NCBI GenBank assembly: GCA_029210625.1
Contig: JARGFU010000007.1
Coordinates: forward strand, 27,742 to 91,741
Source: Deltaproteobacteria bacterium
GTDB lineage: Bacteria > Myxococcota > Myxococcia > SLRQ01
Direction: 5' to 3'
DNA length: 64,000 nt
Within the stretch, counting starts at the first letter, position 1. Each line of letters begins with the position of its first letter. Both the position numbers and the translations under genes were made by a program. This document shows positions 3,544 to 59,886 of the stretch, piece by piece. The notes below the pieces were generated by a model. It made no database searches, had not been told where the DNA came from, and worked only from the letters and a program-made list of their open reading frames with translations.

Positions 3544-3574
3544 CGCGGGGCGGCGTGGGGTCCTAGCTAGCTCC

Positions 3575-4147: not shown

Positions 4148-4267
4148 GCACGGGGCCGGGGAGCGGCAAGGTGGGGCAGGGGTGGGGGATGCACCCGCTC
4201 TTTCGGCTTCCGTGCCGATTGGGTAGCTTCGCGCCTCCCATAGAACCCCCACCTCCGGAGAGGCGCC

Positions 4268-4945: not shown

Positions 4946-4959
4946 TCCCGCCCGCCTCG

Positions 4960-5598: not shown

Positions 5599-5646
5599 GC
5601 GCGAGGGGCGTGGACAGAGGGCCAGGCCCCCAGCCTATGCTGGGGC

Positions 5647-6537: not shown

Positions 6538-6548
6538 GAGGTGAAGCC

Positions 6549-8183: not shown

Positions 8184-8192
8184 GCCCGGGGC

Positions 8193-10436: not shown

Positions 10437-10484
10437 GAACGGGGAAGAGGCATCGCTGTGGCCTCGATCTAGCCCCTCTCCCGG

Positions 10485-12170: not shown

Positions 12171-12201
12171 GGCCGCATTCTAGGCTGGCCCCGGCGATCG
12201 G

Positions 12202-29305: not shown

Positions 29306-29421
29306 GGCAAACCTCCTTGAGGGGTCGCAATCGTTCGAGAGGGGTCCGCAACCTACCGCTCGCCCCCGGGCGCGGCAAGGACCGCCGTCCGGGGCCGGAG
29401 GGCCCTGGAACACGCTGTTTC

Positions 29422-29450
29422 AGCCGCCCGGAGCGTTCTTCCGGGCGGCT
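29422..29450 (-). terminator. Strong GC hairpin 17 nt downstream of the giant gene's stop; a putative intrinsic terminator
   Basis: The sequence agccgcccggagcgttcttccgggcggct forms an 11-bp perfect stem with a 7-nt loop. The downstream U-tract on the minus-strand transcript is weak. Confidence 0.4.
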
Positions 29451-29466
29451 CGGGGTGCGCGGAGCG

Positions 29467-32400
29467 CTAGCGTCGGCGCCGCCGCAGGGGCAGGGCCAGG
29501 AGCGCCAGCAGGGCCGCGAGGGCGATCCCGCCGCCGCCGACGTCGCTCTCGGACGCCATGCAGTTGCAGCCGCGGCCGGTGCCGACGTCCGGCGGCTCGG
29601 CGACGGTGAAGGTCCGGATCTCGCCGAAGCCGGTGCCGCCCTCGCTCCCCGCGATGGCGCAGAAGTAGTAGGTGCCCGCGCCGGGGTTGGGCAGCGTCTC
29701 GGCGAACTGCACCGCGAAGTTGCCGGCGCCCAGGATGGTGCCCTCGCCCTCGCCGGCGGGCACCCGGGTGCCGAAGCTGTCGTCGCAGGCGGCGGGCTCC
29801 TGCAGGCTGTAGCGGAACCAGCCCACCGCGTCGAAGCCCTGCGGGTTGCCGGAGCCGGCGAGGGTGACCTGCTGGGCGTTGGACGAGCTCGAGAGGGTCA
29901 ACACCAGCGGCGGCACGTCGGCGGTGGTGAAGGACTGCACGTTCCCGAAGGCCGCGCCCGCCAGGTTGCTGGCCGCGGCGCAGTAGTAGTAGGTCGTGCC
30001 GGGGCTCAGGCCGGCCGCGTTCACCGAGAAGGGCGCGGGGCTGAAGGCCGCGCCCAGGGCGATGCCGCCGGTGTCCGGCACCCGCTGGCCGAAGGCGTCG
30101 TCGCAGGTGCCCGGGTCGGTGTCACCGAGGCGGAACCAGCCGGTGGCCTCGGTGCCGTTCGGGGTCGCGGCGCCGGCCAGGGTGGCCGAGGTCCCCACCA
30201 CGTCCGTCGCCGGATCGGTGACCACGTCGGGCGCCGTGGCGCCGGTGGTGAAGGACTCGAGCTGCCCGAAGGTCATGCCCAGGCCGTTCTCGGCGATGGC
30301 GCAGTAGTAGTAGGTCACGCCCGGATCGAGGCCCGTGGCGGGCTCGGAGAAGGCGACCGGATCGACGCCGGCCCCGAGGTCGTGGCCGAGGGCGTCCGGC
30401 AGGCGGATGCCGAAGCTGTCGTCGCAGCTGCCGGGATCGACGCTGTCGATCCGGAACCAGCCCAGGGTCAGGTCGGCGTTGGGGTTGGCCGTGCCGTTGA
30501 GGACCGCCGAGGAGAGATCGACCCCGGTCGCCGGATCGGTGGTGACGCTCGGGTAGTCGGCCGGGGTGGTCAGCATCCGCACCTCGCCGAAGCCGAAGCC
30601 GTCGCTGTTCTGGGCGATGGCGCAGAAGTAGTAGGTGGTGTTCGGCGTCAGGCCGGTGAGGGTCTCGGTGAAGGGCGTGACCCCGGCGCCGGCGGTGATG
30701 GGGGTGCCGCCGCTGGCGGGGAGCCGGGTGCCGAAGAGGTCGTCACAGCTGCCCGGGCTGGTCGTGCCGTAGCGGAACCAGGCGGTGGTGGCGAGGGGGC
30801 CGGGTTCGGCCGTGCCGTGGAGGTCGGCGCCGGTCGCGACGATCTGGTCGGCCGGCTCGGTGGTGACCCGCGGCGAGCCGAGGGTGGTGAAGGAGAGGAC
30901 CGCCCCGAAGCCCAGGCCGGTGGCGTTCTGGGCGACGGCGCAGAAGTAGTAGGTCGTCCCCGCCGTGAGGCCCACCAGGCTTTCGCTGAAGGTGACCGGG
31001 CTGGTGCCCGAGCCCAGGGAGGTGCCGCCGAAGGAGGGCGCCCGCATCCCGAAGGTGTCGTTGCAGGTGCCCGGGCTGGTGGTGTCGTAGCGGAAGTAGC
31101 CGGTGGAGGCGCCGGCGTTCGGGTTGGCCACGCCCTCCAGGGTGGCGGTGGTGTGGCCGAGGCTGGTGGCCGCCAGGGTGGTGGTCGCCGGGGCCTCCAG
31201 GGTGGTGAAGGAGAGGACCGAGCCGATCCCCGTGCCGGTGGCGTTCTGCGCGATGGCGTAGAAGTAGTAGGTCGTGCCGGGCTGGAGGCCGGTGATGCCC
31301 TGGGTGTAGGGGACCGGGCTGCTGCCGGAGCCCAGGGCGGTGCCGGAGGCGGCCGGGGCCCGGGTGCCGAAGCTGTCGTTGCAGAAGACCGGATCCGCGG
31401 TGTCGTAGCGGAAGTGGCCGGTCGTCGCGGCGAGGTTCGGGTTCGCCGAGCCGCCGAGCACCGCGCTGCTGCCGGTGATCGAGGTGGCCGCCACGGTGGT
31501 CACCGAGGGGCTCGCCGGGGTGGTGAAGGAGAGGACCGTGCCGAAGCCCGGGCCGGTCGAGTTCGTGGCGATGGCGCAGTAGTAGTAGGTGGTGCTCGGG
31601 GTCAGGCCGGTGATGCCCTGGCTGTACTGCACGGCGCTGCCGCCGTTGCCGAGGCTGGTGCCTCCCGCGAAGGGCGCCCGCGTCCCGAAGGTGTCGTTGC
31701 AGCTCGACGGAGCGGTGCTCGCGTAGCGGAAGTAGCCGGTGCTGGCGGAGAGGTTGGGGTTCGCCCAGCCCTCGAGGGTGGCCCCGGTGCTGCTGACGCC
31801 GGTCGGGGGCAGGGTGGCGACCGTCGGCGCAGAGGGCGTCGTGAAGGAGAGCACGCTGCCGTAGCCGGCGCCGGTGGCGTTGGAGGCGATGGCGCAGAAG
31901 TAGTAGGTGGTCCCCGCCGTGAGCCCCGAGATGGCCTGCGAGTAGGGCACGGCGCTGCTGCCGTTGCCGAGGTCGGCGCCGCCGGAGGCCGGCATCCGCG
32001 TGCCGAAGCTGTCGTTGCAGAAGGTGGGATCCGTGGCGCTGTAGCGGAAGTAGCCCGTGGTGGCCGTCAGGTTCGGGTTGGCCGATCCGTTGAAGACCGC
32101 GCCGGTGCTGGTCACCGAGGTCGCCGCCACGGTGGTGACGGTGGGCTCGGCCGGGGTGGTGAAGGAGAGGACCGTGCCGAAGCCCGGGCCCTCGCTGTTG
32201 GTGGCGATGGCGCAGAAGTAGTAGGTGGTCGCCGGGGTGAGGCCGGTGATGCTCTCGGCGTAGGCCTGCGGGGCGCTACCAGCGCCGAGGTCGGCGCCGC
32301 CGCCGGCCGGGGCGCGGGTCCCGAAGGTGTCGTTGCAGGTGCCCGGGCTGGTGGTGGCGTAGCGGAAGTGGCCGGTGGTGGTCGAGGCGTTCGGATCCGC

Positions 32401-35400
32401 CGAGCCGTTCAGGGTCGCGCCCCAGCCGGAGAGGCTGGTGGCCGCCAGGGTGGTGACCGCGGGAGGCGCCAGGGTGGTGAAGGAGAGCACCTGGCCGAGC
32501 TCCAGGCCCACGGCGTTCTGGGCGATGGCGCAGAAGTAGTAGGTCGTCCCGGGGACGAGACCGGTGAGGGTCTGGGTGTAGGTCACCGGGGTGCCGCCGG
32601 CCCCGAGGGAGACGCCGCCGGTGGCCGGGGTCCGGGTGCCGAAGCTGTCGTTGCAGGCGCCCGGGTTCACGGGGCCGTAGCGCAACCAGCCGGTGGTGGC
32701 CGAGAGGTTCGGGTTGGCGCTGCCCTCGAGGGTGGCGGTGCTGCCGGCCACCCCGCTGGCGGCGAGGGTGGTGACGCTCGGGCTCGCGAGGGTGGTGAAG
32801 CTCTGCACCCCGCCGAAGGTGCGCCCCTCGGCGTTCACCGCCGCGGCGCAGAAGTAGTAGGTCGTCGCCGGCGAGAGGCCGGTGACCGCGAGGCTGTAGG
32901 GCACGGAGAGGTTGCCGGCGCCGAGCGCCTCACCGCCGGTGGAGGGGTGGCGGGTGCCGTAGGCGTCGCTGCAGGTGCCCGGCGCGGTGGTGCCGAGGCG
33001 GAAGTAGCCGGTGGCGGCCGCGAGGTTCGGATCGGCCGAGCCCTCGAGGGTCGCGCCGGTGCTGCTCACCGCCGTCGCGGCGAGGCTCGCCACGGTGGGC
33101 GCCGCCGGGGTGGTGAAGGAGAGCACGCTGCCGAAGTCGGTGCCGGTGGCGTTCTGGGCGATGGCGCAGAAGTAGTAGGTCGTCCCGGCGGCCAGGCCCG
33201 AGACGGCCTGCGTGAAGGGCACGTTCGCGCTGCCGGCGCCGAGGTTGGCGCCGCCCGAGGCGGGCGCCCGGGTACCGAAGCTGTCGTTGCAGACCGAGGG
33301 ATCGGTGCTGCTGTAGCGGAAGTAGCCGGTCGTGGGAGACAGGTTCGGGTTGGCCGAGCCGGCCAGGACCGCGCTGCTGCCCGTCACCGAGGTCGCGGGC
33401 GAGGTCACGACGTTGGGCGCCGCCGGCGTGCTGAAGCTCGAGATGGCGCCGAAGGAGGTGCCCTGGGCGTTACTGGCGATGGCGCAGTAGTAGTAGGTCG
33501 TCGCCGCGGAGAGGCCCACCAGGCTCTGGCTGAAGGGCACGGGGACGCTGCCCGAGCCGAGGCTCGCGCCGCCGGTGAGGGGAGCGCGGGTGCCGAAGCT
33601 GTCGTCACAGGCGCCGGGGTTGGTGGTGGAGTAGCGGAAGTGCCCGGTGGTGGCCGAGTTGCTCGGGTTGGCGGAGCCCTCGAGGGTGGCGCTCGTGGCC
33701 GCGACGGAGGTCGCGGGCGCGGTGGTCACCGTGGGCGGCGCCGCGGTCGTGAAGGAGAGGACGAGGCCGAAGCCGGTGCCGTAGGTGTTCGAGGCGATGG
33801 CGCAGTAGAAGTAGGTCGTGCCCGTCGTCAGGCCGGTGATGGCCTCGGAGAAGGGGACGCTGGCGCCGCCCGAGCCGAGGTCGGTGCCGCCCGCCGCCGG
33901 CACCCGGGTGCCGAAGGCGTCGTTGCAGACCCCCGGATCGGTGGTGGCGAAGCGGAAGTGCGCGGTGGTCGCCTCGAAGTTGGGGTTGCCGGAGCCGGTG
34001 AGGGTGGCGCCGGTGCCGGTCACCGCGGTCACGGCGCTGGTCAAGACGGTCGGCGCCGCGGCGGTGGTGAAGGTCTGCACGCCGCCGAAGCCCGTGCCCT
34101 CGGAGTTGGAGGCGATGGCGCAGTAGAAGTAGGTCGTCCCGGTCGAGAGGCCCGTGAGCGGCTCGCTGAAGGGCACGGGGCTGCTGCCCGACCCGAGCGA
34201 GGTGCCGCCGGCGGCCGGGAGCCGGGTGCCGAAGCTGTCGCTGCAGGTGCCCGGATCGGTGGTCGAGAAGCGGAAGTGCCCGGTGGCCGCCCGCAGGTTC
34301 GGGGTCGCCGAGGCCTGGAGGGTGGCGGTGGTGCTGGTCACGCCGGTGGCGGCCAGGGTCGCGACGGTCGGGGCCGCCGGCGTGGTGAAGGAGAGGACCG
34401 CTCCGTAGCCGTTGCCCGTGCCGCTCTGGGCGATGGCGCAGAAGTAGTAGGTCGTGCCGGCGCCGAGGCCGGTGAGGGCCTGCGAGTAGGGCACCGGGCT
34501 GCCGCCCGCACCGAGGGAGACACCGCCGGCGGCCGGGGCCCGGGTGCCGAAGCTGTCGTTGCAGGTGGTGGGGTCGGTGCTGCTGTAGCGGAAGTACCCG
34601 GTGGTCGCGTCGAGGTTCGGGTTCGCCGAGCCGTTGAGCACCGCGCTGGTGCTCGTGACCGAGGTCGCCGCAGCGGTGGTCACGGCGGGCAGGGTCGGCG
34701 TGGTGAAGGAGAGCACGGCGCCGAGGGCGGTGCCCTCCGCGTTGATGGCGATGGCGCAGTAGTAGTAGGTCGTGCCCGAGGCGAGGCCGGTGAGGACCTC
34801 GGTGTAGGCCAGCGGGGCGGCGCCCGAGCCGAGATCGGTCCCGCCCGTGGCCGGGACGCGGGTGCCGAAGCTGTCGTCACAGACCCCGGGGGAGGTCGTC
34901 GCGTAGCGGAAGTGGCCGGTGGTGGGGGAGCGGTTGGCGATCGCCGTGCCCTCGAGGGTGGCGCCGGTGGCCGAGACGGCGGTGGCCGGATCGGTGGTCA
35001 CGACGGGGACGTCGGCGGTGGTGAAGCTCTGGAGCACGCCGAAGCTCGTGCCCACCGCGTTGGTGGCGATGGCGCAGAAGTAGTAGGTCGTCCCGGCGGA
35101 GAGGCCGGAGAGGGCCTGGGTGTAGGGCACGGGGCTGCCGCCGCTGCCCAGGGAGGCGCCGCCGGTGGCCGGAGCGCGCAGGCCGAAGCTGTCGTCACAG
35201 ACCCCGGGGTCGGTCGTCGCGTAGCGGAAGTGGCCGGTGGTGGCCTCGAGGTTGGGATCGGCGGACGCCGAGAGGATCGCGCTGGAGCCGGTGATCGCCG
35301 TGGCGCTGCCGGTGGAGACCGAGGGGGCGTCGGCGGTGGTGAAGCTCAGCACGCCGCCGAAGGCCGTGCCCTCGGCGTTGGTGGCGATGGCGCAGTAGTA

Positions 35401-38400
35401 GTAGGTCGTCCCGGTCGAGAGGCCGGAGAGGGTCCGCGAGTAGAAGACGTCGGAGCTGCCCGCCCCCAGCGCGGTGCCGCCGGTGGCCGGGGTGCGCGTG
35501 CCGAAGGTGTCGTTGCAGGTCCCCGGATCGGTGGTGGCGTAGCGGAAGTGGCCGGTCGAGGCCGAGAGGTTGGGGTTGGCGGCGCCCTCGAGGGTCGCGC
35601 CGGTGCCGCTCACCGCCGAGGCGGCGAGGGTGGTCACCGCCGGCGCCGAGGGCGTGGTGAAGGAGATCACGCTGCCGAAGCCCGTGCCCGTGGCGCTCTG
35701 CGCGATGGCGCAGAAGTAGTAGGTGGTGCCGGAGGCGAGGCCGGTGAGGGAGTTGGAGTAGGGCACCGGGCTGTTCCCCGAGCCCAGGTCCGTCCCACCG
35801 GAGGCCGGGGTGCGGGTGCCGAAGCTGTCGTTGCAGGTGGTCGGATCGGTGCTGCTGTAGCGGAACCACCCCGTCGTGGCGTCGAGGTTGGGATCGGCCG
35901 AGCCGTTGAGCACCGCGCCGCTGCTGGTCACCGAGGTCGCCGCGGCGGTGGTCACCGTCGGCAGAGTCGGGGTGGTGAAGGAGAGCACGGCCCCGAAGGA
36001 GGTGCCCTCGGCGTTCGCCGCGATGGCGCAGTAGTAGTAGGTCGTCGAGGAGGCCAGCCCGGTGAGGACCTCGTCGTAGGGGAGGGCGCTGCTGCCGGCG
36101 CCCAGGGCGGTCCCGCCGGAGGCCGGGGCGCGGGTGCCGAAGCTGTCGTTGCAGGTGCCCGGATCGCTGGAGGCGTAGCGGAAGTAGCCGCTGGTGCCCG
36201 AGAGGTTCGGGTTGGCGGAGCCCTGGAGCGTGGCCCCGCTGGCGCTGACCGCAGTCGCCGCGAGGGTGCTCACGGTCGGGGCGTCGGGCGTGGTGAAGGA
36301 GAGGACGCCGCCGAAGGCGGTGCCCACGGCGTTCGTGGCCGCGGCGCAGAAGTAGTAGGTGGTCGAGGCGGAGAGGCCCGCGAGCACCTCGTCGAAGGAG
36401 ATCGGCGTGCCGCCGGCGCCCAGGTCGGTGCCGCCCGAGGCCGGGACGCGGGTGCCGAAGCTGTCGTTGCAGGTGCCCGGGTCGATCGTGCCGTAGCGGA
36501 AGTAGCCGGTGGCGGCGAGGAGCTGCGGGTTGGCCTGGCCGTCGAGGGTGGCGCCGGTGCTGCTCACGCCGCTGACGGCGACGGTGGTGACGGTCGGCGC
36601 CGCCGCGGTGGAGAAGGAGCGGACCACGCCGAAGCCGGTGCCCTCGGCGTTGTTGGCGATGGCGCAGTAGTAGTACGTCGTCCCGGTGGCGAGCCCGGTG
36701 ACGCTCTGGGTGTAGGGCACGGGCGCGCTGCCGGCGCCGAGGGAGGCGCCGCCGCTGGCCGGGGCCCGGGTGCCGAAGCTGTCGTTGCAGGTGCCCGGAT
36801 CCGTGGCGCTGTAGCGGAAGTAGCCGGTGGTCGGCGAGAGGTTCGGGCTGGCCGTGCCCTCGAGGGTGGCGCTGGTGCCCGTCACCGCGCTGGCGGTCAC
36901 GGTGGTCACCCCCGGCGGGCCGGTGGTGGTGAAGGAGAGCACGCCACCGAAGTCGAGGCCGGTGGCGTTCTGGGCGATGGCGCAGAAGTAGTAGGTGATG
37001 CCGCTCGAGAGGCCGCTGATGGCCTGGGCGAAGGCGATGGGGCTGCCGCCGGCGCCGAGGGAGGCGCCGCCGGTGGCCGGGGTGCGGGTGCCGAAGGTGT
37101 CGTCGCAGCTGGCCGGAGGCGTGGCCGAGTAGCGGAACCAGCCGGTGGTCGAGGAGAGGTTCGGGTTGGCCGAGCCGTTGAGGGTCGCGCCCGAGCTGGA
37201 GATCAGGCTGGCGGCGACGGTGGTGACCGTCGGGGTGGCCGGCGTGGTGAAGGTCGCCACGCTGCCGAAGCCGGTGCCCACGGCGTTCGAGGCGATGGCG
37301 CAGAAGTAGTAGGTGGTGCCCGAGGAGAGGCCGGTGATGGCCTGGGTGTAGGGCACGGCGATGTCGCCGGCACCCAGCGAGGCGCCGCCGGAGGCCGGGG
37401 CGCGGGTGCCGAAGCTGTCGTCGCAGGTGCCCGGATCGGTGGTGTCGTAGCGGAAGTAGCCGGTGCTGCCGTTCAGGTTGGGATCGGCCTGGCCGGCCAG
37501 GGTGGCCCCCGAGCTGGTGATCGAGCTGGCCACGCCGGTGGTCACCGTCGGGGCGGCGGGCGTGGTGAAGGAGAGGATCTCACCCACGGCGTTGCCCACG
37601 CTGCTCGAGGCGAGGATGCAGAAGTAGTAGGTCGTGCCCGGGTTCAGCGAGGTGACCGCCTGGGCGTGAGGCACCGGCGTGTTGCCGCCGCCGAGGTCCG
37701 CCCCGCCGGTGGCCGGGGTGCGGGTGCCGAAGGTGTCGTTGCAGGTGCCCGGGTTGGTGGTGCTGTGGCGGAACCAGGCGGTGGTGGGATCGCCGTTGGG
37801 GTTCACCGTGCCGTTGAGGGTCGCGCCGGTGGAGGCGATGGCCGTGGCCGCCAGGGTGGTCGCCGCGGGCGGCGCCGCCGGGGTGGTGAAGGAGAGGACC
37901 GGCCCGAGGGTCTTGCCCACGCTGCTCTCGGCGATGGCGCAGAAGTAGTAGGTGGTCGCCGGCGCGAGCCCGGAGAGGGGCTGGGCCATGGCGACCGGCA
38001 CCGAGCCGCTCCCCAGGGAGTAGGTCGTGGAGACCGTGCCGAAGGTGTCGTTGCAGCCCGCCGGATCGGTGGTGTCGTAGCGGAACCAGCCGGTGGTCGT
38101 GTAGCTGTTCGGGGTGATCGCGGCGTTGAGGGTCGCGGTGGTCGAGGTGACCGGCGTGGCGGCCAGGGTGACGACCGTCGGCGGGGTGGTCGTGGTGAAG
38201 CTGCGGACGGTGCCGAAGGAGATGCCCACCGCGTTCTGGGCGACGGCGCAGAAGTAGTAGGTCGTCCCCGGGGAGAGCCCGGTGATCGCCTGGGAGAAGC
38301 TGGTGTTGCTGGTGCCCGAGCCGAGGTTGGTGCCGCCGGTGGTCGGCGCCCGGGTCCCGAAGCTGTCGTTGCAGGTGCCGGGGCTGGCCGTGCCGTAGCG

Positions 38401-41400
38401 GTACCAGCCGGTGGTGGCGCTGCCCCAGGGGTTGGCGTAGCCGTTGAGGGTGGCGAGGGTGGGGCTGACGCCGGTGGCGCTGTTGGTGCCGACCGTCGGC
38501 TCCACGGAGTCGGTGGTGAAGGTCTGCACCGAGCCCCAGCTGGTGCCGTAGGAGTTCCGGGCCAGCGCGCAGTAGTAGTAGGTCGTCCCGGGCTGGAGGC
38601 TGGTGCGCGAGCGGGAGAAGCTCACGACCCCGGCGCCGGTGCCGAGGTAGGTGTCCGAGGTGCTCGAGGAGGGCCAGCGGGTGCCGAAGACGTCGCTGCA
38701 GACCCCGGGGTTCGAGGTCGAGAAGCGGAAGTAGCCGTAGGTCCCGTTGTTGTTGGGGTTGGCCGTGCCCTGGAAGACCACCGAGGAGGAGGTGATCGAG
38801 GTGGGCGGCTCGGTGGTGACGATCGGCGCGTCGGCGGTGGTCACGGAGACCACCGTGCCGAAGGCCGTGCCCTCGGCGGAGGAGACGATGGCGCAGTAGT
38901 AGTAGGTGGTGCCCGCCGAGAGGCCGCTGATGGTCTGGTTGAAGGAGACGCCCGAGGTGCCCGAGCCCAGGCTGGTGCCACCGGTGGTGGGCGCCCGGGA
39001 GCCGAAGGTGTCGTTGCAGGTGCCCGGGTCGGTGAGGGCGTAGCGGAACCAGCCGGTGGTGGCCGCGCCGTTCGGGGTGCCAGTGCCGTAGAGGCGCACC
39101 GAGGAGTTGGTGATGCTGCCCGCGGCCTCGGTGACCACCGTCGGCGGCGTCGGGGTGGTGAAGCTGACGATCGAGCCGAAGGTCTTGCCGACGCTGTTCT
39201 CGGCGATGGCGCAGTAGTAGTAGGTCGTGCCGGCGACGAGGCCGGTGATGTCCTCACTGAAGGAGACGTTGTTGGTGCCCGCGCCGAGGGCGTCCCCGCC
39301 GGTGGTGGGGGCCCGGGTGCCGAAGGTGTCGTTGCAGGTGCCGGGGCTGGTGGTCGAGTAGCGGAACCAGCCGGTGGTGGCCGCGCCGCCCGGGTCGGAG
39401 GCGCCGCGCAGGGTGGCGGTGGTGCCGGTCAGGTTGATGGCGCTGTAGGTCGTCGCGGTCGGGGCGTCGGGCAGGGTGGTGAAGGAGAGCACCGAACCCC
39501 AGCTGGTGCCGTAGGAGTTCCGGGCCAGGGCGCAGTAGTAGTAGGTCGTCCCGGGCAGGAGGCTGGTGTAGGAGCGGGCGTAGAAGACCGGGGCGCTGCC
39601 GGTGCCCAGGTAGGTGTCGGAGGTCGTGGAGCTGGGCCAGCGCGTACCGAAGCTGTCGCTGCAGGCGCCCGGATCGGTGGTGGAGAAGCGGAAGTAGCCG
39701 TAGGTGCCGGCGGCGTTGGGGTCGGCCGAGCCGTTGAAGAGCACCGACGAGGAGGTGATCGAGGTCGGCGGCTCGGTCGTCACCGTCGGCGCGTCGGCCG
39801 TGGTGAAGGTGATCACCGCGCCGAAGGCGGTGCCCTCGGCCGAGGAGACGATGGCGCAGTAGTAGTAGGTCGAGCCCACCGAGAGCCCGGCGATGGACTG
39901 GGAGAAGGAGACCCCGCTGGTGCCGGTGCCGAGGTTGGTGCCGCCGGAGGTGGGGGCGCGAGAGCCGAAGGTGTCGTTGCAGGTCCCCGGATCGGTGGGG
40001 CTGTAGCGGAACCACCCGGTGGTGGCGGAGCCGTTGGGCGTGCCGGTGCCGCGCAGGGTGGCGTCGTCCTGGGTGATCCCGGTGGCGGGATCGGTGGTGA
40101 CCAGCGGCGGGGTGGGCGTCGTGAAGCTCACCATCGAGCCGAAGGCCTTGCCCACGCTGTTCTCGGCGATGGCGCAGTAGTAGTAGGTCGTGCCCGCGAC
40201 GAGGCCGGTGACGTTCTCGTTGAAGGAGACCGTGCTGTTCCCGGCGCCGAGGGCATCACCGCCGGTGGTGGGGGCGCGGGTACCGAAGGTGTCGTTGCAG
40301 GTGCCGGGGCTGGCCGTGGCGTAGCGGAACCAGGCGGTGGTCGTGGCGCCGCCGGGGTTCGCGCCGCCCCGCAGCTGGGCGCCGGTGCCCGTCAGGGCGG
40401 TGGCGCTGTAGGTGCTCACCGTCGGCAGGGCGGCCAGGGTGGTGAAGGACTGCACGGTGCCCCAGGAGGTCCCGTAGGAGTTCCGGGCCAGGGCGCAGTA
40501 GTAGTAGGTGTTCCCCGGCAGGAGGCCCGTGAGGGTGCGGGCGAAGGGCACCGCAGCCGTGCCGGTGCCGAGGTAGGTGTCGGAGCTCGTCGACGAGGGC
40601 CAGCGGGTGCCGAAGCTGTCGCTGCAGGTGCCCGGGTTGGTGGTGGAGTAGCGGAAGAAGCCGTAGGCGCCGTTGCTGTTCGGATCACCGGTGCCGTTGA
40701 AGACCACCGAGGTGGCCGTGATCGAGTTCGGCGCCTCGGTGGTCACCGCCGGCACGTCGGCGGTGGTGAAGCTCATCACCGCGCCGAAGGCGGTGCCCTC
40801 GGCCGAGGCGGCGATGGCGCAGTAGTAGTAGGTGGTCCCGGCCGAGAGGCCGGAGATGGCGCGGGAGTAGGGGACCGCGGCGGTGCCCGAGCCCAGGCTG
40901 GTGCCGCCGGTGGTGGGCGCCCGCGAGCCGAAGACGTCGTCGCAGTCGGTGGGCTCGGTCAGGGCGTAGCGGAACCAGCCGGTGGTGGCCGAGCCGTTGG
41001 GATCGGCCTGTCCCCGCAGGGTGGCCCCGCTGTTGGTGAGGCCGGTGATGGTGTCGGTGGTGACGATGGGCGGCGTCGGCGTGGTGAAGCTGACGATCGT
41101 GCCGTAGGTCTTGCCCTCGCTGTTCTCGGCGATGGCGCAGTAGTAGTAGGTGGTGCCGGCGGTCAGCCCGGAGATGGTCTCGTTGTAGGAGACCGTGCTG
41201 GTGCCCGAGCCGACGTCGTCGCCGCCGGTGGTGGGGGCGCGGGTGCCGAAGGTGTCGTTGCAGGTGCCCGGGCTGGAGGTGTCGTAGCGGAACCAGGCGG
41301 TGGTGGCCGCGCCGCCCGGATCGACCCCACCGCGAAGCAGCGCGGTGGTGGCGGTCAGGCCGGTGGCGCTGTAGGTCGAGACCCCCGGCGGATCCGCGAG

Positions 41401-44028
41401 GGTGGTGAAGGACTGCACCGTGCCCCAGTTGGTGCCGTAGGAGTTCCGGGCCAGGCCGCAGAAGTAGTAGGTGGTGCCCGGCAAGAGTCCGGTGATCGTG
41501 CGCCCGAAGGGCACCGGATCGGTGCCGGTGCCGAGATAGGTGTCCGAGACGGTCGAGGAGGGGATGCGCGTCCCGAAGCTGTCGCTGCAGGTGCCGGGGT
41601 TGGTGGTGCTGTAGCGGAAGAAGCCGTAGGCGCCGTTGCCGTTCGGATCGCCGGTGCCGTTGAGGACGACCGAGGAGGAGGTGATCGAGGTCGCCGGCTC
41701 GGTGGTCGCGACCGGCGCGTCGGCGGTGGTGAAGGTGAGCACCGCGCCGAAGGCCGTGCCCTCGGCGGAGGTGACGATGGCGCAGTAGTAGTAGAGGGTG
41801 CCGGCCGAGAGGCCGCTGACGTTCTGGTAGTAGCTGACGGCGCTGCTGCCGGAGCCGAGGTTGGAGCCCCCGGTGGCGGGCGCGCGCGAGCCGAAGGTGT
41901 CGTTGCAGGTGACCGGATCGGTCGTGCTGTAGCGGAAGTGGCCGGTGGAGGTGGCCAGGTTGGGGGTGCCGGTGCCGTTGAGCCGGGCGCTGCTGTTGGT
42001 GAGGCTGGAGGCGGGCTCGGTCGTCGCCAGGGGCGGGGTGGGCGTGGTGAAGGTGCGGACGGTGCCGAAGGCGATGCCCACCGAGTTCTGGGCGATGGCG
42101 CAGAAGTAGTAGGTCTGGCCAGCGACCAGGCCGGTGACGGCGTCGTTGAAGCTCACCGTGCTGTTGCCCGAGCCGAGGTCGTCACCGCCGGTGGTGGGGG
42201 CGCGGGTGCCGAAGGTGTCGTTGCAGCTGCCGGGGCTGCTGGTGGAGAAGCGGAACCAGCCCGAGGTCGTGGCGCCGCCGGGGTTCGCCGAGCCGTTGAG
42301 CTGCGCCGTGGTGCCGGTCAGCAGGGTGGCGCTGCTGGTGCTCACCGTCGGGAGGGCCGCCAGGGTGGTGAAGGACTGCACGCTGCCCCAGTTCGTCCCG
42401 TAGGAGTTCCGGGCCAGGGCGCAGTAGTAGTAGGTCGTGCCCGGCACGAGGCTGGTGTAGGAGCGCGAGTAGTCGACCGGGACGTCGCCGGTGCCCAGGT
42501 AGGTGTCCGAGGTGCTGGAGGTGGGCCAGCGGGAGCCGAAGGCGTCGCTGCAGGTGCCGGGGTTGGTGGAGCTGAAGCGGAAGTAGCCGTAGGTGCCGTT
42601 GAGGTTGGGCGTGGCCGAGCCCTGGAAGACCGCGCTGGTCGCCGTGATGGAGGTCGGGGGGTTGGTGGTCACGTCCGGGGCGTCGGCGGTCTTGAAGGAG
42701 ACCACGGTGCCGAAGGCCAGGCCCTCGCTGTTCTGGGCGATGGCGCAGAAGTAGTAGGTCGTGCCGGCCGAGAGCCCGCTGACGTTCTGGTAGAAGGTGA
42801 TGGACGAGGTGCCCGAGCCGAGGGCCGAGCCGCCGGTGGCCGGCGCCCGGGAGCCGAAGACGTCGTCGCAGGTGCCCGGATCGGTGAGGCCGTAGCGGAA
42901 CCACCCGGTGGCCGAGGCGCCGCTGGGGATGGCCTCGCCGTTGAGGCGGGCGCCGCTGCTGGTGAGGCTGCTCGCGGGGTTGGTGGTGACGATCGGGGCC
43001 GAGGGCGTGGTGAAGCTGCGGACGGTGCCGAAGCTCTTGCCCACGCTGTTCTGGGCGATGGCGCAGAAGTAGTAGGTCGTCGCCGAGGAGAGGCCGGTCA
43101 CGCCCACGGCGTAGCCAACCGACGAGTTGCCCGAGCCGAGGGCCGAGCCGCCGGTGGTGGGGGCGCGGGTGCCGAAGACGTCGTCGCAGGAGGCGGGGTT
43201 GGTCGTGGAGTAGCGGAACCAGCCGGTGGTCGCCGCGCCGCCCGGGTTGGCCGAGCCGTTGAGCTGGGCGGAGGTGCCGGTGACGAGGGTGGCGCTGGAG
43301 GTCGAGACCACCGGGGCGTTGGCCAGGGCGGTGAAGGAGAGCACCTCGCCGAAGGAGGTGCCGTGGGTGTTACTGGCGATGGCGCAGTAGTAGTAGGTCG
43401 AGCCCGGCTGGAGGCCGGTGATGCCGCGGGTATAGGAGACCGGGGAGTTGCCGGAGCCCAGGGCGGTGCCGCCGCTGGCCGGAGCGCGGGAGCCGAAGCT
43501 GTCGTCACAGGTGCCCGGATCGATCGTGTCGTAGCGGAACCAGCCGGTGGAGGAGGCCGCGCTGGGGTTCGCCGAGCCCTCGAGGGTGGCGGTGGTGCTG
43601 GTGATGGCCGTCGCGCCGACGGTCGTCACGGCGGGGGCGCCCGGCACCGTGAAGGAGACGATCCCTCCGAAGGCGGTGCCCGAGGCGTTGTTCACGATCG
43701 CGCAGAAGTAATAGGTGACCCCCGAGGTCAGCCCCGTCGCGAGGATCGAGTAGGGGACCGAGCCGGTGCCCGAGCCCAGATCGGTGCCGCCGGTCACCGG
43801 CACCCGGGTGCCGAAGGCGTCGGTGCAGGTGCCGGGATCGGTGGCGCTGATCCGGAACCAGCCGGTGCTCTGCTCGCCGTTCGGGTTGCCCGTGCCGTTG
43901 AGCTGGGCCGAGGACGTCGTGATCGACGTCGCCGCCGAGGTCGAGGCCGTCGGCGCGGCGGCGAGCGAAGGAACGGCAGTCAGGAGAACCACTGCGGGCA
44001 GAAGAGCCCGGGCAAGAGCACGGCGCAT
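29467..44028 (-). CDS. Giant (4,853 aa) secreted protein of 45 tandem FN3-like repeats with a MYXO-CTERM-like sorting signal
   Basis: A single uninterrupted ORF. It has a signal peptide (MRRALARALLPAVVLLTAVPSLAAAP) followed by 45 repeats of about 106 aa. The consensus is ..P.VTT.AATS.T...A.LNGSANPN...TTG(W/Y)FRYS.TDPG.C.D.FG.RAP..GG..LG.G...V.....L.GL..GTTYY(Y/F)CAIA.N..G..FG.V.SFTT. The TTYYFxAxAxN 'tyrosine corner' is FN3-like. The C-terminus is GRGCNCMASESDVGGGGIALAALLALLALPLRRRRR. The product is very rich in Thr, Ser, Gly and Ala. Confidence 0.8.
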   Translation of the reverse strand: MRRALARALLPAVVLLTAVPSLAAAPTASTSAATSITTSSAQLNGTGNPNGEQSTGWFRISATDPGTCTDAFGTRVPVTGGTDLGSGTGSVPYSILATGLTSGVTYYFCAIVNNASGTAFGGIVSFTVPGAPAVTTVGATAITSTTATLEGSANPSAASSTGWFRYDTIDPGTCDDSFGSRAPASGGTALGSGNSPVSYTRGITGLQPGSTYYYCAIASNTHGTSFGEVLSFTALANAPVVSTSSATLVTGTSAQLNGSANPGGAATTGWFRYSTTNPASCDDVFGTRAPTTGGSALGSGNSSVGYAVGVTGLSSATTYYFCAIAQNSVGKSFGTVRSFTTPSAPIVTTNPASSLTSSGARLNGEAIPSGASATGWFRYGLTDPGTCDDVFGSRAPATGGSALGSGTSSITFYQNVSGLSAGTTYYFCAIAQNSEGLAFGTVVSFKTADAPDVTTNPPTSITATSAVFQGSATPNLNGTYGYFRFSSTNPGTCSDAFGSRWPTSSTSDTYLGTGDVPVDYSRSYTSLVPGTTYYYCALARNSYGTNWGSVQSFTTLAALPTVSTSSATLLTGTTAQLNGSANPGGATTSGWFRFSTSSPGSCNDTFGTRAPTTGGDDLGSGNSTVSFNDAVTGLVAGQTYYFCAIAQNSVGIAFGTVRTFTTPTPPLATTEPASSLTNSSARLNGTGTPNLATSTGHFRYSTTDPVTCNDTFGSRAPATGGSNLGSGSSAVSYYQNVSGLSAGTLYYYCAIVTSAEGTAFGAVLTFTTADAPVATTEPATSITSSSVVLNGTGDPNGNGAYGFFRYSTTNPGTCSDSFGTRIPSSTVSDTYLGTGTDPVPFGRTITGLLPGTTYYFCGLARNSYGTNWGTVQSFTTLADPPGVSTYSATGLTATTALLRGGVDPGGAATTAWFRYDTSSPGTCNDTFGTRAPTTGGDDVGSGTSTVSYNETISGLTAGTTYYYCAIAENSEGKTYGTIVSFTTPTPPIVTTDTITGLTNSGATLRGQADPNGSATTGWFRYALTEPTDCDDVFGSRAPTTGGTSLGSGTAAVPYSRAISGLSAGTTYYYCAIAASAEGTAFGAVMSFTTADVPAVTTEAPNSITATSVVFNGTGDPNSNGAYGFFRYSTTNPGTCSDSFGTRWPSSTSSDTYLGTGTAAVPFARTLTGLLPGNTYYYCALARNSYGTSWGTVQSFTTLAALPTVSTYSATALTGTGAQLRGGANPGGATTTAWFRYATASPGTCNDTFGTRAPTTGGDALGAGNSTVSFNENVTGLVAGTTYYYCAIAENSVGKAFGSMVSFTTPTPPLVTTDPATGITQDDATLRGTGTPNGSATTGWFRYSPTDPGTCNDTFGSRAPTSGGTNLGTGTSGVSFSQSIAGLSVGSTYYYCAIVSSAEGTAFGAVITFTTADAPTVTTEPPTSITSSSVLFNGSADPNAAGTYGYFRFSTTDPGACSDSFGTRWPSSTTSDTYLGTGSAPVFYARSYTSLLPGTTYYYCALARNSYGTSWGSVLSFTTLPDAPTATTYSAINLTGTTATLRGASDPGGAATTGWFRYSTTSPGTCNDTFGTRAPTTGGDALGAGTNNVSFSEDITGLVAGTTYYYCAIAENSVGKTFGSIVSFTTPTPPTVVTEAAGSITNSSVRLYGTGTPNGAATTGWFRYALTDPGTCNDTFGSRAPTTGGTSLGSGTSGVSFNQTISGLSAGTTYYYCAIVSSAEGTAFGTVVSVTTADAPIVTTEPPTSITSSSVVFQGTANPNNNGTYGYFRFSTSNPGVCSDVFGTRWPSSSTSDTYLGTGAGVVSFSRSRTSLQPGTTYYYCALARNSYGTSWGSVQTFTTDSVEPTVGTNSATGVSPTLATLNGYANPWGSATTGWYRYGTASPGTCNDSFGTRAPTTGGTNLGSGTSNTSFSQAITGLSPGTTYYFCAVAQNAVGISFGTVRSFTTTTPPTVVTLAATPVTSTTATLNAAITPNSYTTTGWFRYDTTDPAGCNDTFGTVSTTYSLGSGSVPVAMAQPLSGLAPATTYYFCAIAESSVGKTLGPVLSFTTPAAPPAATTLAATAIASTGATLNGTVNPNGDPTTAWFRHSTTNPGTCNDTFGTRTPATGGADLGGGNTPVPHAQAVTSLNPGTTYYFCILASSSVGNAVGEILSFTTPAAPTVTTGVASSITSSGATLAGQADPNLNGSTGYFRYDTTDPGTCDDSFGTRAPASGGASLGAGDIAVPYTQAITGLSSGTTYYFCAIASNAVGTGFGSVATFTTPATPTVTTVAASLISSSGATLNGSANPNLSSTTGWFRYSATPPASCDDTFGTRTPATGGASLGAGGSPIAFAQAISGLSSGITYYFCAIAQNATGLDFGGVLSFTTTGPPGVTTVTASAVTGTSATLEGTASPNLSPTTGYFRYSATDPGTCNDSFGTRAPASGGASLGAGSAPVPYTQSVTGLATGTTYYYCAIANNAEGTGFGVVRSFSTAAAPTVTTVAVSGVSSTGATLDGQANPQLLAATGYFRYGTIDPGTCNDSFGTRVPASGGTDLGAGGTPISFDEVLAGLSASTTYYFCAAATNAVGTAFGGVLSFTTPDAPTVSTLAATAVSASGATLQGSANPNLSGTSGYFRYASSDPGTCNDSFGTRAPASGGTALGAGSSALPYDEVLTGLASSTTYYYCAIAANAEGTSFGAVLSFTTPTLPTVTTAAATSVTSSGAVLNGSADPNLDATTGWFRYSSTDPTTCNDSFGTRTPASGGTDLGSGNSPVPYSNSLTGLASGTTYYFCAIAQSATGTGFGSVISFTTPSAPAVTTLAASAVSGTGATLEGAANPNLSASTGHFRYATTDPGTCNDTFGTRTPATGGTALGAGSSDVFYSRTLSGLSTGTTYYYCAIATNAEGTAFGGVLSFTTADAPSVSTGSATAITGSSAILSASADPNLEATTGHFRYATTDPGVCDDSFGLRAPATGGASLGSGGSPVPYTQALSGLSAGTTYYFCAIATNAVGTSFGVLQSFTTADVPVVTTDPATAVSATGATLEGTAIANRSPTTGHFRYATTSPGVCDDSFGTRVPATGGTDLGSGAAPLAYTEVLTGLASGTTYYYCAIAINAEGTALGAVLSFTTPTLPAVTTAAATSVTSTSAVLNGSANPNLDATTGYFRYSSTDPTTCNDSFGTRAPAAGGVSLGAGGSPVPYSQALTGLGAGTTYYFCAIAQSGTGNGYGAVLSFTTPAAPTVATLAATGVTSTTATLQASATPNLRAATGHFRFSTTDPGTCSDSFGTRLPAAGGTSLGSGSSPVPFSEPLTGLSTGTTYFYCAIASNSEGTGFGGVQTFTTAAAPTVLTSAVTAVTGTGATLTGSGNPNFEATTAHFRFATTDPGVCNDAFGTRVPAAGGTDLGSGGASVPFSEAITGLTTGTTYFYCAIASNTYGTGFGLVLSFTTAAPPTVTTAPATSVAATSATLEGSANPSNSATTGHFRYSTTNPGACDDSFGTRAPLTGGASLGSGSVPVPFSQSLVGLSAATTYYYCAIASNAQGTSFGAISSFSTPAAPNVVTSPATSVTGSSAVLAGSANPNLSPTTGYFRYSSTDPSVCNDSFGTRAPASGGANLGAGSANVPFTQAVSGLAAGTTYYFCAIAQNATGTDFGSVLSFTTPAAPTVASLAATAVSSTGATLEGSADPNLAAATGYFRLGTTAPGTCSDAYGTRHPSTGGEALGAGNLSVPYSLAVTGLSPATTYYFCAAAVNAEGRTFGGVQSFTTLASPSVTTLAASGVAGSTATLEGSANPNLSATTGWLRYGPVNPGACNDSFGTRTPATGGVSLGAGGTPVTYTQTLTGLVPGTTYYFCAIAQNAVGLELGQVLSFTTLAPPAVTTLAATSLSGWGATLNGSADPNASTTTGHFRYATTSPGTCNDTFGTRAPAGGGADLGAGSAPQAYAESITGLTPATTYYFCAIATNSEGPGFGTVLSFTTPAEPTVTTVAATSVTSTGAVFNGSANPNLTATTGYFRYSATDPTFCNDSFGTRMPASGGADLGNGSSAVPYSQAISGLTAGTTYYFCAIASNATGAGYGSVLSFTTPSAPTVATLPPTGVSSTGATLEGWANPNLSASTGYFRYASTAPSSCNDTFGTRAPFAGGTSLGNGGSAVQYSQGITGLTPSTTYYYCAIATNSTGPGFGTVLSFTTPASPSVTTVAATSITGSSAVLGGSANPNLAATTGHFRYDTADPVFCNDSFGTRAPAASGTALGSGSSPVPYTQGITGLQPGTTYYFYAIAQNATGTGIGSVLSFTTLEAPATTTLAATSLGHTTATLEGVANPNAGASTGYFRYDTTSPGTCNDTFGMRAPSFGGTSLGSGTSPVTFSESLVGLTAGTTYYFCAVAQNATGLGFGAVLSFTTLGSPRVTTEPADQIVATGADLHGTAEPGPLATTAWFRYGTTSPGSCDDLFGTRLPASGGTPITAGAGVTPFTETLTGLTPNTTYYFCAIAQNSDGFGFGEVRMLTTPADYPSVTTDPATGVDLSSAVLNGTANPNADLTLGWFRIDSVDPGSCDDSFGIRLPDALGHDLGAGVDPVAFSEPATGLDPGVTYYYCAIAENGLGMTFGQLESFTTGATAPDVVTDPATDVVGTSATLAGAATPNGTEATGWFRLGDTDPGTCDDAFGQRVPDTGGIALGAAFSPAPFSVNAAGLSPGTTYYYCAAASNLAGAAFGNVQSFTTADVPPLVLTLSSSSNAQQVTLAGSGNPQGFDAVGWFRYSLQEPAACDDSFGTRVPAGEGEGTILGAGNFAVQFAETLPNPGAGTYYFCAIAGSEGGTGFGEIRTFTVAEPPDVGTGRGCNCMASESDVGGGGIALAALLALLALPLRRRRR
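29580..43940 (-). repeat. Coding tandem-repeat array: 45 units of about 318 bp
   Basis: The period comes from the protein repeats. Units are diverged at nucleotide level; for example, the antisense mini-ORFs in different units are only about 50% identical. Confidence 0.75.
38480..43300 (-). repeat. Higher-order repeat zone: five copies of a 3-unit (A-B-C) super-repeat of about 320 aa (~960 bp)
   Basis: Repeats 3-17 of the protein alternate three sub-types. Type A has GWFRY...GGD.LG.GNSTVSFN...AIAENSVGK. Type B has PNGSATTGWFRY...AIVSSAEGTAFG...FTTADAP. Type C has (T/A)YG(Y/F)FR(F/Y)S...RWPSS.TSDTYLGTG...YYYCALARNSYGT(S/N)WG...FTTLAALP. Cognate units in different copies are about 85% identical. 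Confidence 0.65.
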
Positions 44029-44146
44029 GGGGCAACCCCTCCGGTTGGGTGTCGAGACGACCCAACGAGTTTAGGGGATCGCGCGCGGCCCGGATACGAT
44101 CGGAGCGAGGGGGGCGGATTTCCCCCGGAGAGCCCGAATTCGGGCT

Positions 44147-45544
44147 CTATTCGGCAGAAGTGGGGGGCTCGTCCCCCTCGTCATCCTCCCCGTCGGACCA
44201 GGCGGAGAGCTTCCGGTAGATCGTCCGGGTGGAGAGGCCCAGGAGGCGGGCGGCGAGCTGCTTGTCGCCCCTCGTCTGCTCCAGCGTCGCGAGGATCACC
44301 GAGCGCTCGATCTCCTCGAGGGGAGCGCCGACGGGCACCACCAGCTCCCGCCGCGCACCGCCGCGCTGCTGGGCGATCTCCTCGGGCAGCTCCGGGAGAT
44401 CGATCCGGTCGCCGCGGCAGAGGACGACGGCCCGCTGCACGATGTTCTGCAGCTGCCGCACGTTCCCGGGGAAGGCGAAGCCCTCCAGGGCGTTCATCGC
44501 GGCCTCGGTGAAGCCGGCGAGGTTCTTGCCGTTCTCCGAGGCGTAGCGGGCCAGGAAGTGCTGGGCGAGCAGCGGGACGTCTCCGCTGCGCTCGCGCAGG
44601 GGCGGCAGGGTCAGGGTGATGACGTTCAGGCGGTAGAAGAGATCCTCCCGGAAGGTGCCCTGGGACACCGCCTCGGAGAGGTCCTTGTTGGTGGCGGCCA
44701 GCACCCGGACGTCGGCCCGGAGGGTCTCGCCGCCGCCGAGCCGCTCGAACTCGCCGCTCTGCAACACCCGCAGGAGCTTGGCCTGCACCGGGGCGGAGAG
44801 CTCGCCGACCTCGTCGAGGAAGAGGGTCCCGCGATCGGCCCGCTGGAAGCGTCCGGCCCGCCGCGCCGAGGCGCCGGTGTAGGCGCCCTTCTCGACGCCG
44901 AAGAGCTCCGACTCCAGCAGGGTCTCCGGGATGGCCGCGCAGTTCACGGCCACGAAGGGGCCGTCGCTGCGCTCGGAGAGGGCGTGGAGGGCCCGGGCGA
45001 TCAGCTCCTTGCCGGTGCCCGACTCGCCCTGGAGGAGGACGGTGGCGTTGGAAGGGGCGGCCTGCCGCACCAGATCGAGGGAGGCGCGGAAGGCCGGAGA
45101 CTGGCCGATGAGCCCGTCGGGGGAGGCCAGGGTCTTCAGGCGGGCCCGCAGGGTGCGGTTCTCCAGGACGAGGGCCTGGCGATCGAGGGCCTTGCGGACG
45201 GCCTTCACGATCACCATCCGCTTGAGGGGCTTGGTGACGAAGTCGTAGGCCCCCTCCTTCATCGCCTCCACCGCGGTCTCCACCGTGCCGTGGGCGGTCA
45301 TCAGGACGACCTCGATCTCCGGGGCGATGGTCCGGACGGCGCGCAGCAGCTCGGTCCCGCTCATCCCCGGCATCATCAGATCGGTGAGGACGACGTTCAC
45401 CTCTTCTGCCCGGAGCAGCTCGAGGGCCTGCGCCCCGTTGGTGGCCTTCAGGACCTCCCACTCCTCGCGGGAGAAGATCCGCTCGAGGGAGTCGAGGTTC
45501 GACTGCTCGTCGTCGACGATCAGGACCTTGGGCGGGGCGTCCAT
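44147..45544 (-). CDS. Sigma-54-dependent response regulator (NtrC/Fis family: REC + AAA+ sigma-54 interaction + HTH)
   Basis: The product has a receiver domain (VLIVDDEQ...[12 protein letters not shown]), a Walker A motif GESGTGKE, a GAFTGA-like segment, and a C-terminal Fis-type HTH. Its start [12 protein letters not shown] was re-derived at 45544. Confidence 0.85.
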
Positions 45545-59840: not shown

Positions 59841-59886
59841 GCCCGGGCCGCATGTGATATTGCGCCTGCCCCAGGAGGGGAGACTC

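Follow-up and report, generated by a model that had tools for sequence, protein, structure and literature searches.

The 64,000-nucleotide stretch of Deltaproteobacteria bacterium DNA analysed here (assembly GCA_029210625.1, contig JARGFU010000007.1, positions 27,742 to 91,741; hereafter the window) raises the question of what kind of protein is encoded by a single 14.6-kb gene within it, and how such a protein could reach the cell surface. The product, which we call the giant protein, consists of 45 consecutive repeats of the fibronectin type III (FN3) kind between an N-terminal export signal and a C-terminal sorting signal of the MYXO-CTERM type. We consider it likely, at a probability of about 0.72, that this is a Sec-exported protein, processed by way of MYXO-CTERM, myxosortase and the T2SS (type II secretion system), and presented as a lipid-anchored, headless FN3 rod that serves as an adhesin or spacer.

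The giant gene is an uninterrupted open reading frame (ORF) of 14,562 nucleotides, with an ATG start and 4,853 codons plus stop, and occupies 22.8% of the window. An earlier note on this DNA had given its coordinates and length correctly and had left the strand unstated, which is minus.

29467..44028, minus strand: the entire coding region for the giant protein, 4,853 residues, stop TAG at 29467-29469 (from the ORF list with its translation and from third-position GC content).

A still longer ORF overlaps it on the plus strand (29317..44511, 5,064 residues, TTG start), and the fact that this frame stays open over 15.2 kb might suggest that it is the true gene or that both strands are coding. 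Codon-position GC content favours the minus-strand ORF, in which it is 0.53/0.66/0.98 at positions 1/2/3, as against 0.97/0.67/0.53 in the plus-strand ORF, the mirror of the minus-strand bias. Where the GC content at third positions (GC3) is near 1 on the sense strand, antisense codons almost never begin with T and stops cannot arise on the plus strand, which explains its stop-free state. Furthermore, the plus-strand translation is of low complexity, rich in G, R, A, E and V, with neither a domain nor a signal seen in it, and every homologue matches the minus-strand product. The minus-strand ORF is therefore real and the 5,064-residue frame is its compositional shadow, genuine coding on the plus strand being hardly credible. 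Naive ORF finders could miscall such a shadow frame as a gene. A strong and sustained GC skew (+0.20 to +0.26 on the plus strand) at 30001-44000 does not extend beyond the giant gene; its probable source is the C-richness of the coding strand that results from the Thr/Ala/Ser/Pro-rich composition, and not replication, and a gene of this kind would be able to distort origin calls that rely on skew. Between the closest paralogous repeats of the giant protein the ratio of nonsynonymous to synonymous substitution rates is 0.27-0.74, so that the repeat domains are under purifying selection; these ratios, together with the retention of homologues across species, show that the gene is not a chance feature.

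Two independent motif anchors, [WYHF][FYL]R[YFIHL] and a TYYxC-like motif, match 45 times each at a spacing of 103-109 residues, in agreement with the original count of 45 repeats of about 106 residues. The repeats are 104-109 residues long and fully cover residues 26-4812, leaving outside only an N-terminal peptide of 25 residues and a C-terminal tail of 41. From end to end the content is thus repeats alone, with neither a catalytic domain nor a distinct head domain, so that the array itself is the functional entity. Alignment of the 45 repeats gives the consensus P.v.T..at......a.L.G.a.Pn...ttG.FRy..t.Pg.C.D.FGtR.P..gg..LG.G...v.......GL..gtTYY.CAiA.n..G..fG.v.sFTT, in which P1, R34, P40, C43, D45, G48, Y81, G92 and G96 are invariant. 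The mature protein, of about 477 kDa, is acidic (isoelectric point about 4.35) and rich in Thr, Ser, Gly and Ala: Thr accounts for 17%, Ser for 11% and Lys for 0.12% of the giant protein, compared to 5.2%, 5.7% and 2.42% in 30 neighbouring genes. Alignment, repeat spacing and the identity matrix divide the array into five blocks, given here from the N-terminus:

43315..43953, minus strand: repeats R1-R2 (residues 26-238), the N-terminal cap, presumably membrane-distal, of which R1 matches repeat 1 of relatives.
38182..43314, minus strand: repeats R3-R18 (residues 239-1949), built from a three-repeat super-unit of 106/106/109 residues (alignment and lag identity).
37552..38181, minus strand: repeats R19-R20 (residues 1950-2159), the junction of the three-repeat and uniform blocks (alignment).
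30874..37551, minus strand: repeats R21-R41 (residues 2160-4385), a uniform block of 106-residue repeats with a weak period of four (spacing and identity matrix).
29593..30873, minus strand: repeats R42-R45 (residues 4386-4812), divergent and adjoining the anchor (identity matrix).

Within R3-R18, identity is 72% at a lag of three repeats versus 49% at a lag of one, and the third repeat type of the super-unit is marked by an SSTSDTYLG insert and the motif CALARNSYGT.WG. In the uniform block, R26, R30, R34 and R38 are mutually 71-80% identical, and R42-R45 have the lowest identity to the remaining repeats (34-59%). R19 is short (104 residues) and without the R-x-P motif. The R19-R20 pair recurs in a relative, P0122, where R19 corresponds to repeat 15 (73%) and R20 to repeat 16 (66%); because P0122 has this same junction pair, the junction is an old and conserved landmark, and it possibly acts as a hinge.

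Assembly errors classically arise in tandem arrays, and the earlier note had worried that the array might have been collapsed or expanded. In such a case the gene would be real and its 45-repeat length the product of mis-joined or expanded repeats. The exact giant protein has no counterpart in public collections, and a homologue on a long-read contig, discussed below, lacks the expected tail in its frame, indicating that such loci can be error-prone. However, in pairwise comparison the repeats are on average 54.5% identical as protein and 68% as DNA, no pair exceeds 85% in DNA (R8/R11), and no exact DNA repeat in the gene is longer than 42 nucleotides, so that short reads can be uniquely placed. 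Because the repeats have diverged and the 14.6-kb frame is unbroken at a GC3 of 0.98, collapse or expansion by the assembler is unlikely; the order of super-repeats and junction repeats is, moreover, mirrored in P0122, and arrays of 41, 37 and 33 repeats occur in independent assemblies. Repeat divergence thus largely answers the worry, and we regard an artefactual array length as very improbable. The long-read homologue itself (locus L007, a metagenome-assembled genome (MAG) of Polyangiaceae, ORF 2300-12700) is a giant ORF that ends in an H/R/P-rich stretch without a MYXO-CTERM tail, and the probable cause is a frameshift from a long-read indel error in the public assembly.

We turned to the fold of the single repeat, which the earlier note had described as an FN3-like beta-sandwich. 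The Pfam family Pur_ac_phosph_N, which is FN3-like, passes its cutoff (31-34 versus 30 bits), with the match covering only the C-terminal third of the profile (strands E-F-G). For three-repeat segments, Pfam fn3 (PF00041) reaches 19.5-19.9 bits and misses its threshold of 25, PhoD_N is weaker still, and in the NCBIfam scan no model matched the repeat. When the 45 repeats were searched as a profile against the Protein Data Bank (PDB), only titin FN3 domains matched, at E = 9e-5, through the E-F tyrosine-corner motif, GL..g..Y.f.V.A.N..G: tGLsagttYyfcaiaeNaeG aligns to the titin motif, and Y81 is invariant in 45/45 repeats. Structure prediction for a single repeat, with the 45 repeats as the alignment, yields an all-beta model of high confidence (pLDDT, the predicted local distance difference test score, 97.2; pTM, the predicted template modelling score, 0.88), a seven-strand FN3 sandwich (ABE + C'CFG) that superposes on solved FN3 domains. 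As modelled, the repeat fold is thus FN3, and the description in the earlier note stands, even though Pfam fn3 itself remains below cutoff. The roughly 15 residues of the model that find no match are accounted for by a 12-residue C-C' loop bearing Cys43. In a three-repeat model (pLDDT 96.4, pTM 0.75), strand G is separated from strand A of the following repeat by only about five residues (T-P-x-x-P).

A pair of cysteines is preserved in nearly every repeat. The protein has 91 Cys in total, two in 44 of the 45 repeats, one in R40 and two in the C-terminal GCNC motif, and exactly two occur in 221/224 repeats of eight relatives. In R40 the second Cys (C84) is replaced by Tyr (codon 31258-31260, minus strand), the sole such repeat, which leaves one Cys unpaired. 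Cys84 aligns in the profile hidden Markov model (HMM) alignment with the Arg of the titin strand-F motif YYFRV, a position that presumably points outward on the C'CFG sheet. In the simplest reading, the extra C-C' loop is probably a flap that a Cys43-Cys84 disulfide staples to the outward side of strand F, supported by the retention of two Cys in the relatives. The most conserved elements of the repeat are C, flap, C' and F (mean column entropy 0.7-1.2 bits) and the most variable is the A-B-E sheet (1.5-1.9 bits).

The two ends of the protein carry the export and sorting signals, both of which had been read correctly at the outset:

43954..44028, minus strand: Sec-type signal peptide, residues 1-25, MRRALARALLPAVVLLTAVPSLAAA, with probable cleavage at S-L-A/A-A (inspection).
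29470..29592, minus strand: MYXO-CTERM-type sorting signal, residues 4813-4853, made up of PDVGTGRG-C-N-C, a spacer, the helix GGGGIALAALLALLALPL and RRRRR (HMM scores).

By inspection, the N-terminus has a positive n-region, a hydrophobic core and small residues at -3/-1, and the boundary to the mature protein is read as MRRALARALLPAVVLLTAVPSLA followed by AA. Complete relatives have equivalent A-x-A signal peptides, with repeat 1 directly after. The C-terminus ends in GRGCNCMASESDVGGGGIALAALLALLALPLRRRRR, with the layout PDVGTGRG-C-N-C-MASESDV-GGGGIALAALLALLALPL-RRRRR followed by the stop, and places the motif G-R-G-C-N-C at residues 4817-4822. Each of the three parts by which MYXO-CTERM is defined (PMC11980579; PMC3325183) is thus present. 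The C-termini of relatives have the same order, GCGC, GCNC or GCSC followed by a hydrophobic stretch and RRRR. The giant protein scores at the thresholds of the two family models, just below that of TIGR03901 (19.6 bits, cutoff 20) and just above that of TIGR03382 (15.9 bits, cutoff 15.85).

The giant protein does not stand alone. With a three-repeat segment as homology query, 419 proteins were retrieved at E <= 1e-5, the best of them 62% identical; they are mostly unnamed or called 'MYXO-CTERM domain-containing protein', and Pur_ac_phosph_N is the precomputed annotation of most. Relatives are encoded in 164 stretches (one genome per species), nearly all from Myxococcota, with hosts that include Polyangiaceae, Sandaracinaceae, Archangium, Myxococcaceae and Chondromyces apiculatus DSM 436. 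When 1.84 billion cluster representatives were searched exhaustively with a profile, 2,506 proteins matched at E <= 1e-30. The Myxococcota relatives share the architecture, with 14-41 repeats and two Cys per repeat, and the largest other arrays have 41 repeats (4,389 residues, N-terminally truncated), 37 (4,004 residues) and 33 (3,491 residues). The giant protein is accordingly the longest array found, a difference of degree that makes it the extreme member of a large existing family. The few relatives outside Myxococcota, from Chloracidobacterium, Anaerolinea and contigs of the Candidate Phyla Radiation (CPR), differ at their C-terminal ends; hence the repeat domain is not specific to the phylum, and only the giant MYXO-CTERM architecture is. 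In these contigs (loci L013, L016, L022, L032 and L059 from Acidobacteria/Chloracidobacterium and L039 from Anaerolinea; proteins P0075 and P0112 from CPR) the longest ORFs end without a MYXO-CTERM tail.

Comparison of individual repeats across the family suggests how such arrays change. R1 finds its best match in repeat 1 of P0123, P0124 and P0128, the three relatives that are complete (60-70%), and signal peptide plus R1 are 71-73% identical to the homologues in Chondromyces apiculatus and the Polyangiaceae MAG (L002 and L007). Together with the GC content of 72%, this last identity suggests that the DNA comes from a Polyangiaceae-like myxobacterium. At the other end, R44 finds its best match in the penultimate repeat of 4/8 relatives (P0121, P0122, P0125, P0127), and R43 in the third- or fifth-from-last repeat of P0121, P0122, P0124, P0127 and P0128. 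Interior repeats are not collinear between the giant protein and the eight relatives. The ends of the array thus look largely fixed in position, and its interior would expand and contract by block duplication.

The MYXO-CTERM route as currently understood comprises lipidation, cleavage by the myxosortase MrtX and transport by the T2SS to the outer surface (PMC11980579, PMC3325183). Applied to the giant protein, it suggests the following course. The signal peptide would route the protein through Sec; each domain would fold and be oxidised in the periplasm, with the C-terminal helix keeping the precursor in the inner membrane. The motif Cys would then be lipidated, MrtX would remove the helix and Arg tail, and the T2SS would transfer the protein to the outer surface. 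There, tethered at its C-terminus, it would project its N-terminus outward on a chain of domains joined by short Pro-containing linkers, and the chain would serve as a passive extender, whether as adhesin, cohesin or spacer, where a cell is in contact with another cell, the matrix or a substrate. Scarcity of Lys, richness in hydroxyl residues and one staple per domain may confer durability amid the secreted proteases of myxobacteria, and the length of the array may be an evolvable parameter. We infer the disulfide, lipidation, cleavage, T2SS export, extended length and adhesive or spacer role alike, and both the term 'fibril or adhesin' and the length of 150-180 nm put forward in the earlier note are extrapolations.

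Several observations weigh against this proposal. The TIGR03901 score of 19.6 bits lies 0.4 below the cutoff of 20, and the motif is GCNC and not the generic GCGC. The three-repeat model aligns in order with solved FN3 triplets at a global template modelling (TM) score of only 0.24-0.39. That the protein has no separate domain for ligand binding makes a simple adhesin reading less convincing. To our knowledge, a folded substrate of 45 domains far exceeds any known T2SS substrate, so that the export step is carried well past the precedents. Finally, neither a myxosortase/CPBP protease nor Gsp (T2SS) genes are found within the window, although this is expected from the literature, in which myxosortase is viewed as a housekeeping enzyme without linkage to its clients (bioRxiv 10.1101/2023.06.07.544157).

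Two other fates for the protein have to be weighed against the same evidence. The score just below the TIGR03901 cutoff would suit a helix that is a plain, unprocessed anchor, in which case the FN3 chain would be retained in the periplasm or at the inner membrane and fill or structure the periplasm. The periplasm is roughly 25-30 nm wide, and we reason that T2SS handling of a chain far longer than that is questionable. However, G-C-x-C stands directly before the helix and Arg cluster as in MYXO-CTERM proteins, the relatives have the canonical GCGC, the Lys-poor, hydroxyl-rich, acidic composition with two Cys per domain is what exposed extracellular proteins typically show, and 45 domains have no obvious role in the periplasm; we therefore think retention most improbable. 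The main rival is release into the matrix, which by analogy may follow what is partly seen for TraA and MXAN_4924: after the same export, proteolysis near the tail or failed anchoring would shed a protein that is soluble or self-associates into a matrix fibre. When TraA lacks its tag, the T2SS releases it (PMC11980579), and the C/flap/C'/F face, the most conserved surface in every repeat, could serve lateral self-association or polymer binding. The full tripartite tail is nevertheless kept in nearly all giant relatives, which implies that anchoring or processing matters, and no sign of a cleavage site is seen on the stretch from R45 to the Cys motif. A shed matrix protein is thus a minority prospect, though a more serious one than retention, and the lipid-anchored surface rod remains our preferred explanation.

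A more ambitious version of the anchored rod, which we offer tentatively and think unlikely, is a molecular ruler. Here a chain of stapled FN3 domains of about 0.5 MDa and more than 100 nm would be threaded lengthwise through the type II secretin and tethered by its C-terminal lipid, and the number of repeats (14-45 in the family) would set a stand-off or cohesion distance. If this were true, the distance would be set between myxobacterial cells, or between a cell and its substrate or prey. The giant protein would then be by far the largest client of the T2SS/MYXO-CTERM route, and the handling by the T2SS of substrates longer than the periplasm is wide would need revision.

The features at the two ends of the giant gene, the first three read from the sequence, are:

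44036..44042, minus strand: Shine-Dalgarno-like GGAGGGG, 7 nucleotides upstream of the ATG.
29422..29450, minus strand: perfect 11-bp hairpin (AGCCGCCCGGA / TCCGGGCGGCT, 7-nucleotide loop), 17 nucleotides past the stop.
44131..44146, minus strand: palindrome AGCCCGAATTCGGGCT, directly after the stop of the upstream regulator, separating both genes.
44147-~45545, minus strand: NtrC-family sigma-54 enhancer-binding response regulator (REC + AAA+ + HTH_8), 118 nucleotides upstream of the giant gene.

The giant gene appears to be monocistronic, and the hairpin after its stop is a possible transcript end without a T-run. Scans for consensus promoters and terminators at both gene ends returned nothing, leaving the hairpin, which has no T-tract, uncalled, and are uninformative at the 72% GC of the window. 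No TGGCAC-N5-TTGC-like (-24/-12) element is found in the 118-nucleotide gap, and matches across the window are below chance. A sigma-54 link to the giant gene was rejected as coincidental adjacency, since the -24/-12 element is missing and the regulator is absent from 65/65 homologous loci. Downstream of the giant gene lie genes for SMC, a MATE transporter, GGDEF, permeases, ABC-F, MCP, an aminotransferase and an aldehyde dehydrogenase; genes upstream of the regulator encode a TPR protein, hydantoinases, a CHASE2 cyclase and a Big_1 lipoprotein. The neighbours in the window are found beside 0/65 homologous loci, and no conserved partner or operon gene emerges among 54 homologous loci, in which the largest flank cluster comprises 10/54 and does not include the window. 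The window is ordinary chromosome. Two further features of it may be mentioned: a second large envelope protein at 59854-62997 (plus strand; 1,047 residues) with a Big_1/Invasin_D3 domain, a lipobox-like N-terminus (LLAVSGC) and no MYXO-CTERM tail, and a hydantoinase/oxoprolinase B + A gene pair at 50301-53902 (minus strand) in a GC-richer stretch (77-79% versus about 72%).

Myxobacterial cohesion, swarming, outer-membrane exchange and predation rely on surface proteins, and MYXO-CTERM tags occur on dozens of proteins per genome, of which few have been studied. A giant gene as such is of a type expected for Myxococcota. The giant protein is the largest representative found of a widespread, unnamed MYXO-CTERM FN3 sub-family that public HMM libraries hardly capture. 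No study of it came up in literature searches, in agreement with the statement in the earlier note that the repeat type is functionally uncharacterised. The sub-family merits a dedicated family model and provides a test case for the limits of the MYXO-CTERM/T2SS route, and the giant protein offers a system in which to ask whether repeat number tunes distance at the cell surface.

Among known systems, the giant protein resembles the MYXO-CTERM proteins of Myxococcus xanthus, such as TraA (MXAN_6895), MXAN_4924 and SgmI (MXAN_2561), in combining an N-terminal Sec signal with a C-terminal Cys motif, transmembrane helix and Arg tail. SgmI carries FN3 domains together with MYXO-CTERM and affects attachment and motility dependent on type IV pili, its mutants resembling attachment-defective strains (bioRxiv 10.64898/2026.08.28.747804). 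It is the nearest studied precedent, although it has two FN3 domains and the giant protein 45. TraA, of about 700 residues, has a PA14 recognition head and Cys-rich repeats that are a proposed rigid stalk, whereas the giant protein is headless; the motifs differ as well, being CC in TraA, GCGC in generic members and GCNC here.

At the level of the domain, the best sequence-HMM matches are the FN3-like N-terminal domains of phosphatases, Pur_ac_phosph_N (PF16656) and PhoD_N (PF16655), without the phosphatase catalytic domain in the giant protein. The match to Pur_ac_phosph_N reflects shared FN3 ancestry and not function. A phosphatase reading drawn from it was ruled out, as there is no catalytic domain and the 45 repeats leave no room for one. 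The sensor domain of the anti-sigma factor RsgI4 of Pseudobacteroides cellulosolvens (PDB 7cg8/7cg5), at 18% identity, is a single domain of an untagged transmembrane regulator. Eukaryotic FN3 arrays (titin A-band, fibronectin, Dscam, contactins) have the E-F tyrosine corner in common with the giant protein, and titin is likewise a long tandem array with super-repeats, but identity to the repeat is only 12-25%. Canonical FN3 lacks a disulfide; the giant-protein repeat adds the roughly 12-residue C-C' loop, which bears one Cys, and has another Cys on strand F, and the interdomain geometry of the three-repeat model is unlike any solved FN3 tandem compared, as its TM scores indicate.

A parallel in overall design is with the giant adhesins of the type I secretion system (T1SS), such as Marinomonas MpIBP, Pseudomonas LapA and Salmonella SiiE, which reach hundreds of kDa and use tens of tandem beta-sandwich domains of about 100 residues as an extender that holds the distal end away from the cell, in repeat numbers that differ between strains or species. 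Their repeats are Big/Ig-like, rigidified by Ca and often near-identical in DNA, and they have a C-terminal RTX/T1SS signal, an N-terminal outer-membrane retention module and distal ligand-binding domains. In contrast, the giant protein has diverged FN3 repeats with a Cys pair, takes the Sec and MYXO-CTERM route and is anchored at its C-terminus, the opposite polarity. Neither RTX nor T1SS nor retention-module families came up in Pfam and NCBIfam scans of N- and C-terminal segments (at the C-terminus, the last 327 residues in the Pfam scan), and the giant protein showed no ligand-binding module. By analogy, then, the giant protein would function like the giant repeat adhesins and yet stand outside the T1SS/RTX class. 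What sets it apart is the disulfide-type Cys pair in an FN3 domain, the headless layout and a size that strains the T2SS model; otherwise it belongs to a known kind, that of giant repetitive surface proteins whose C-terminal tag is familiar.

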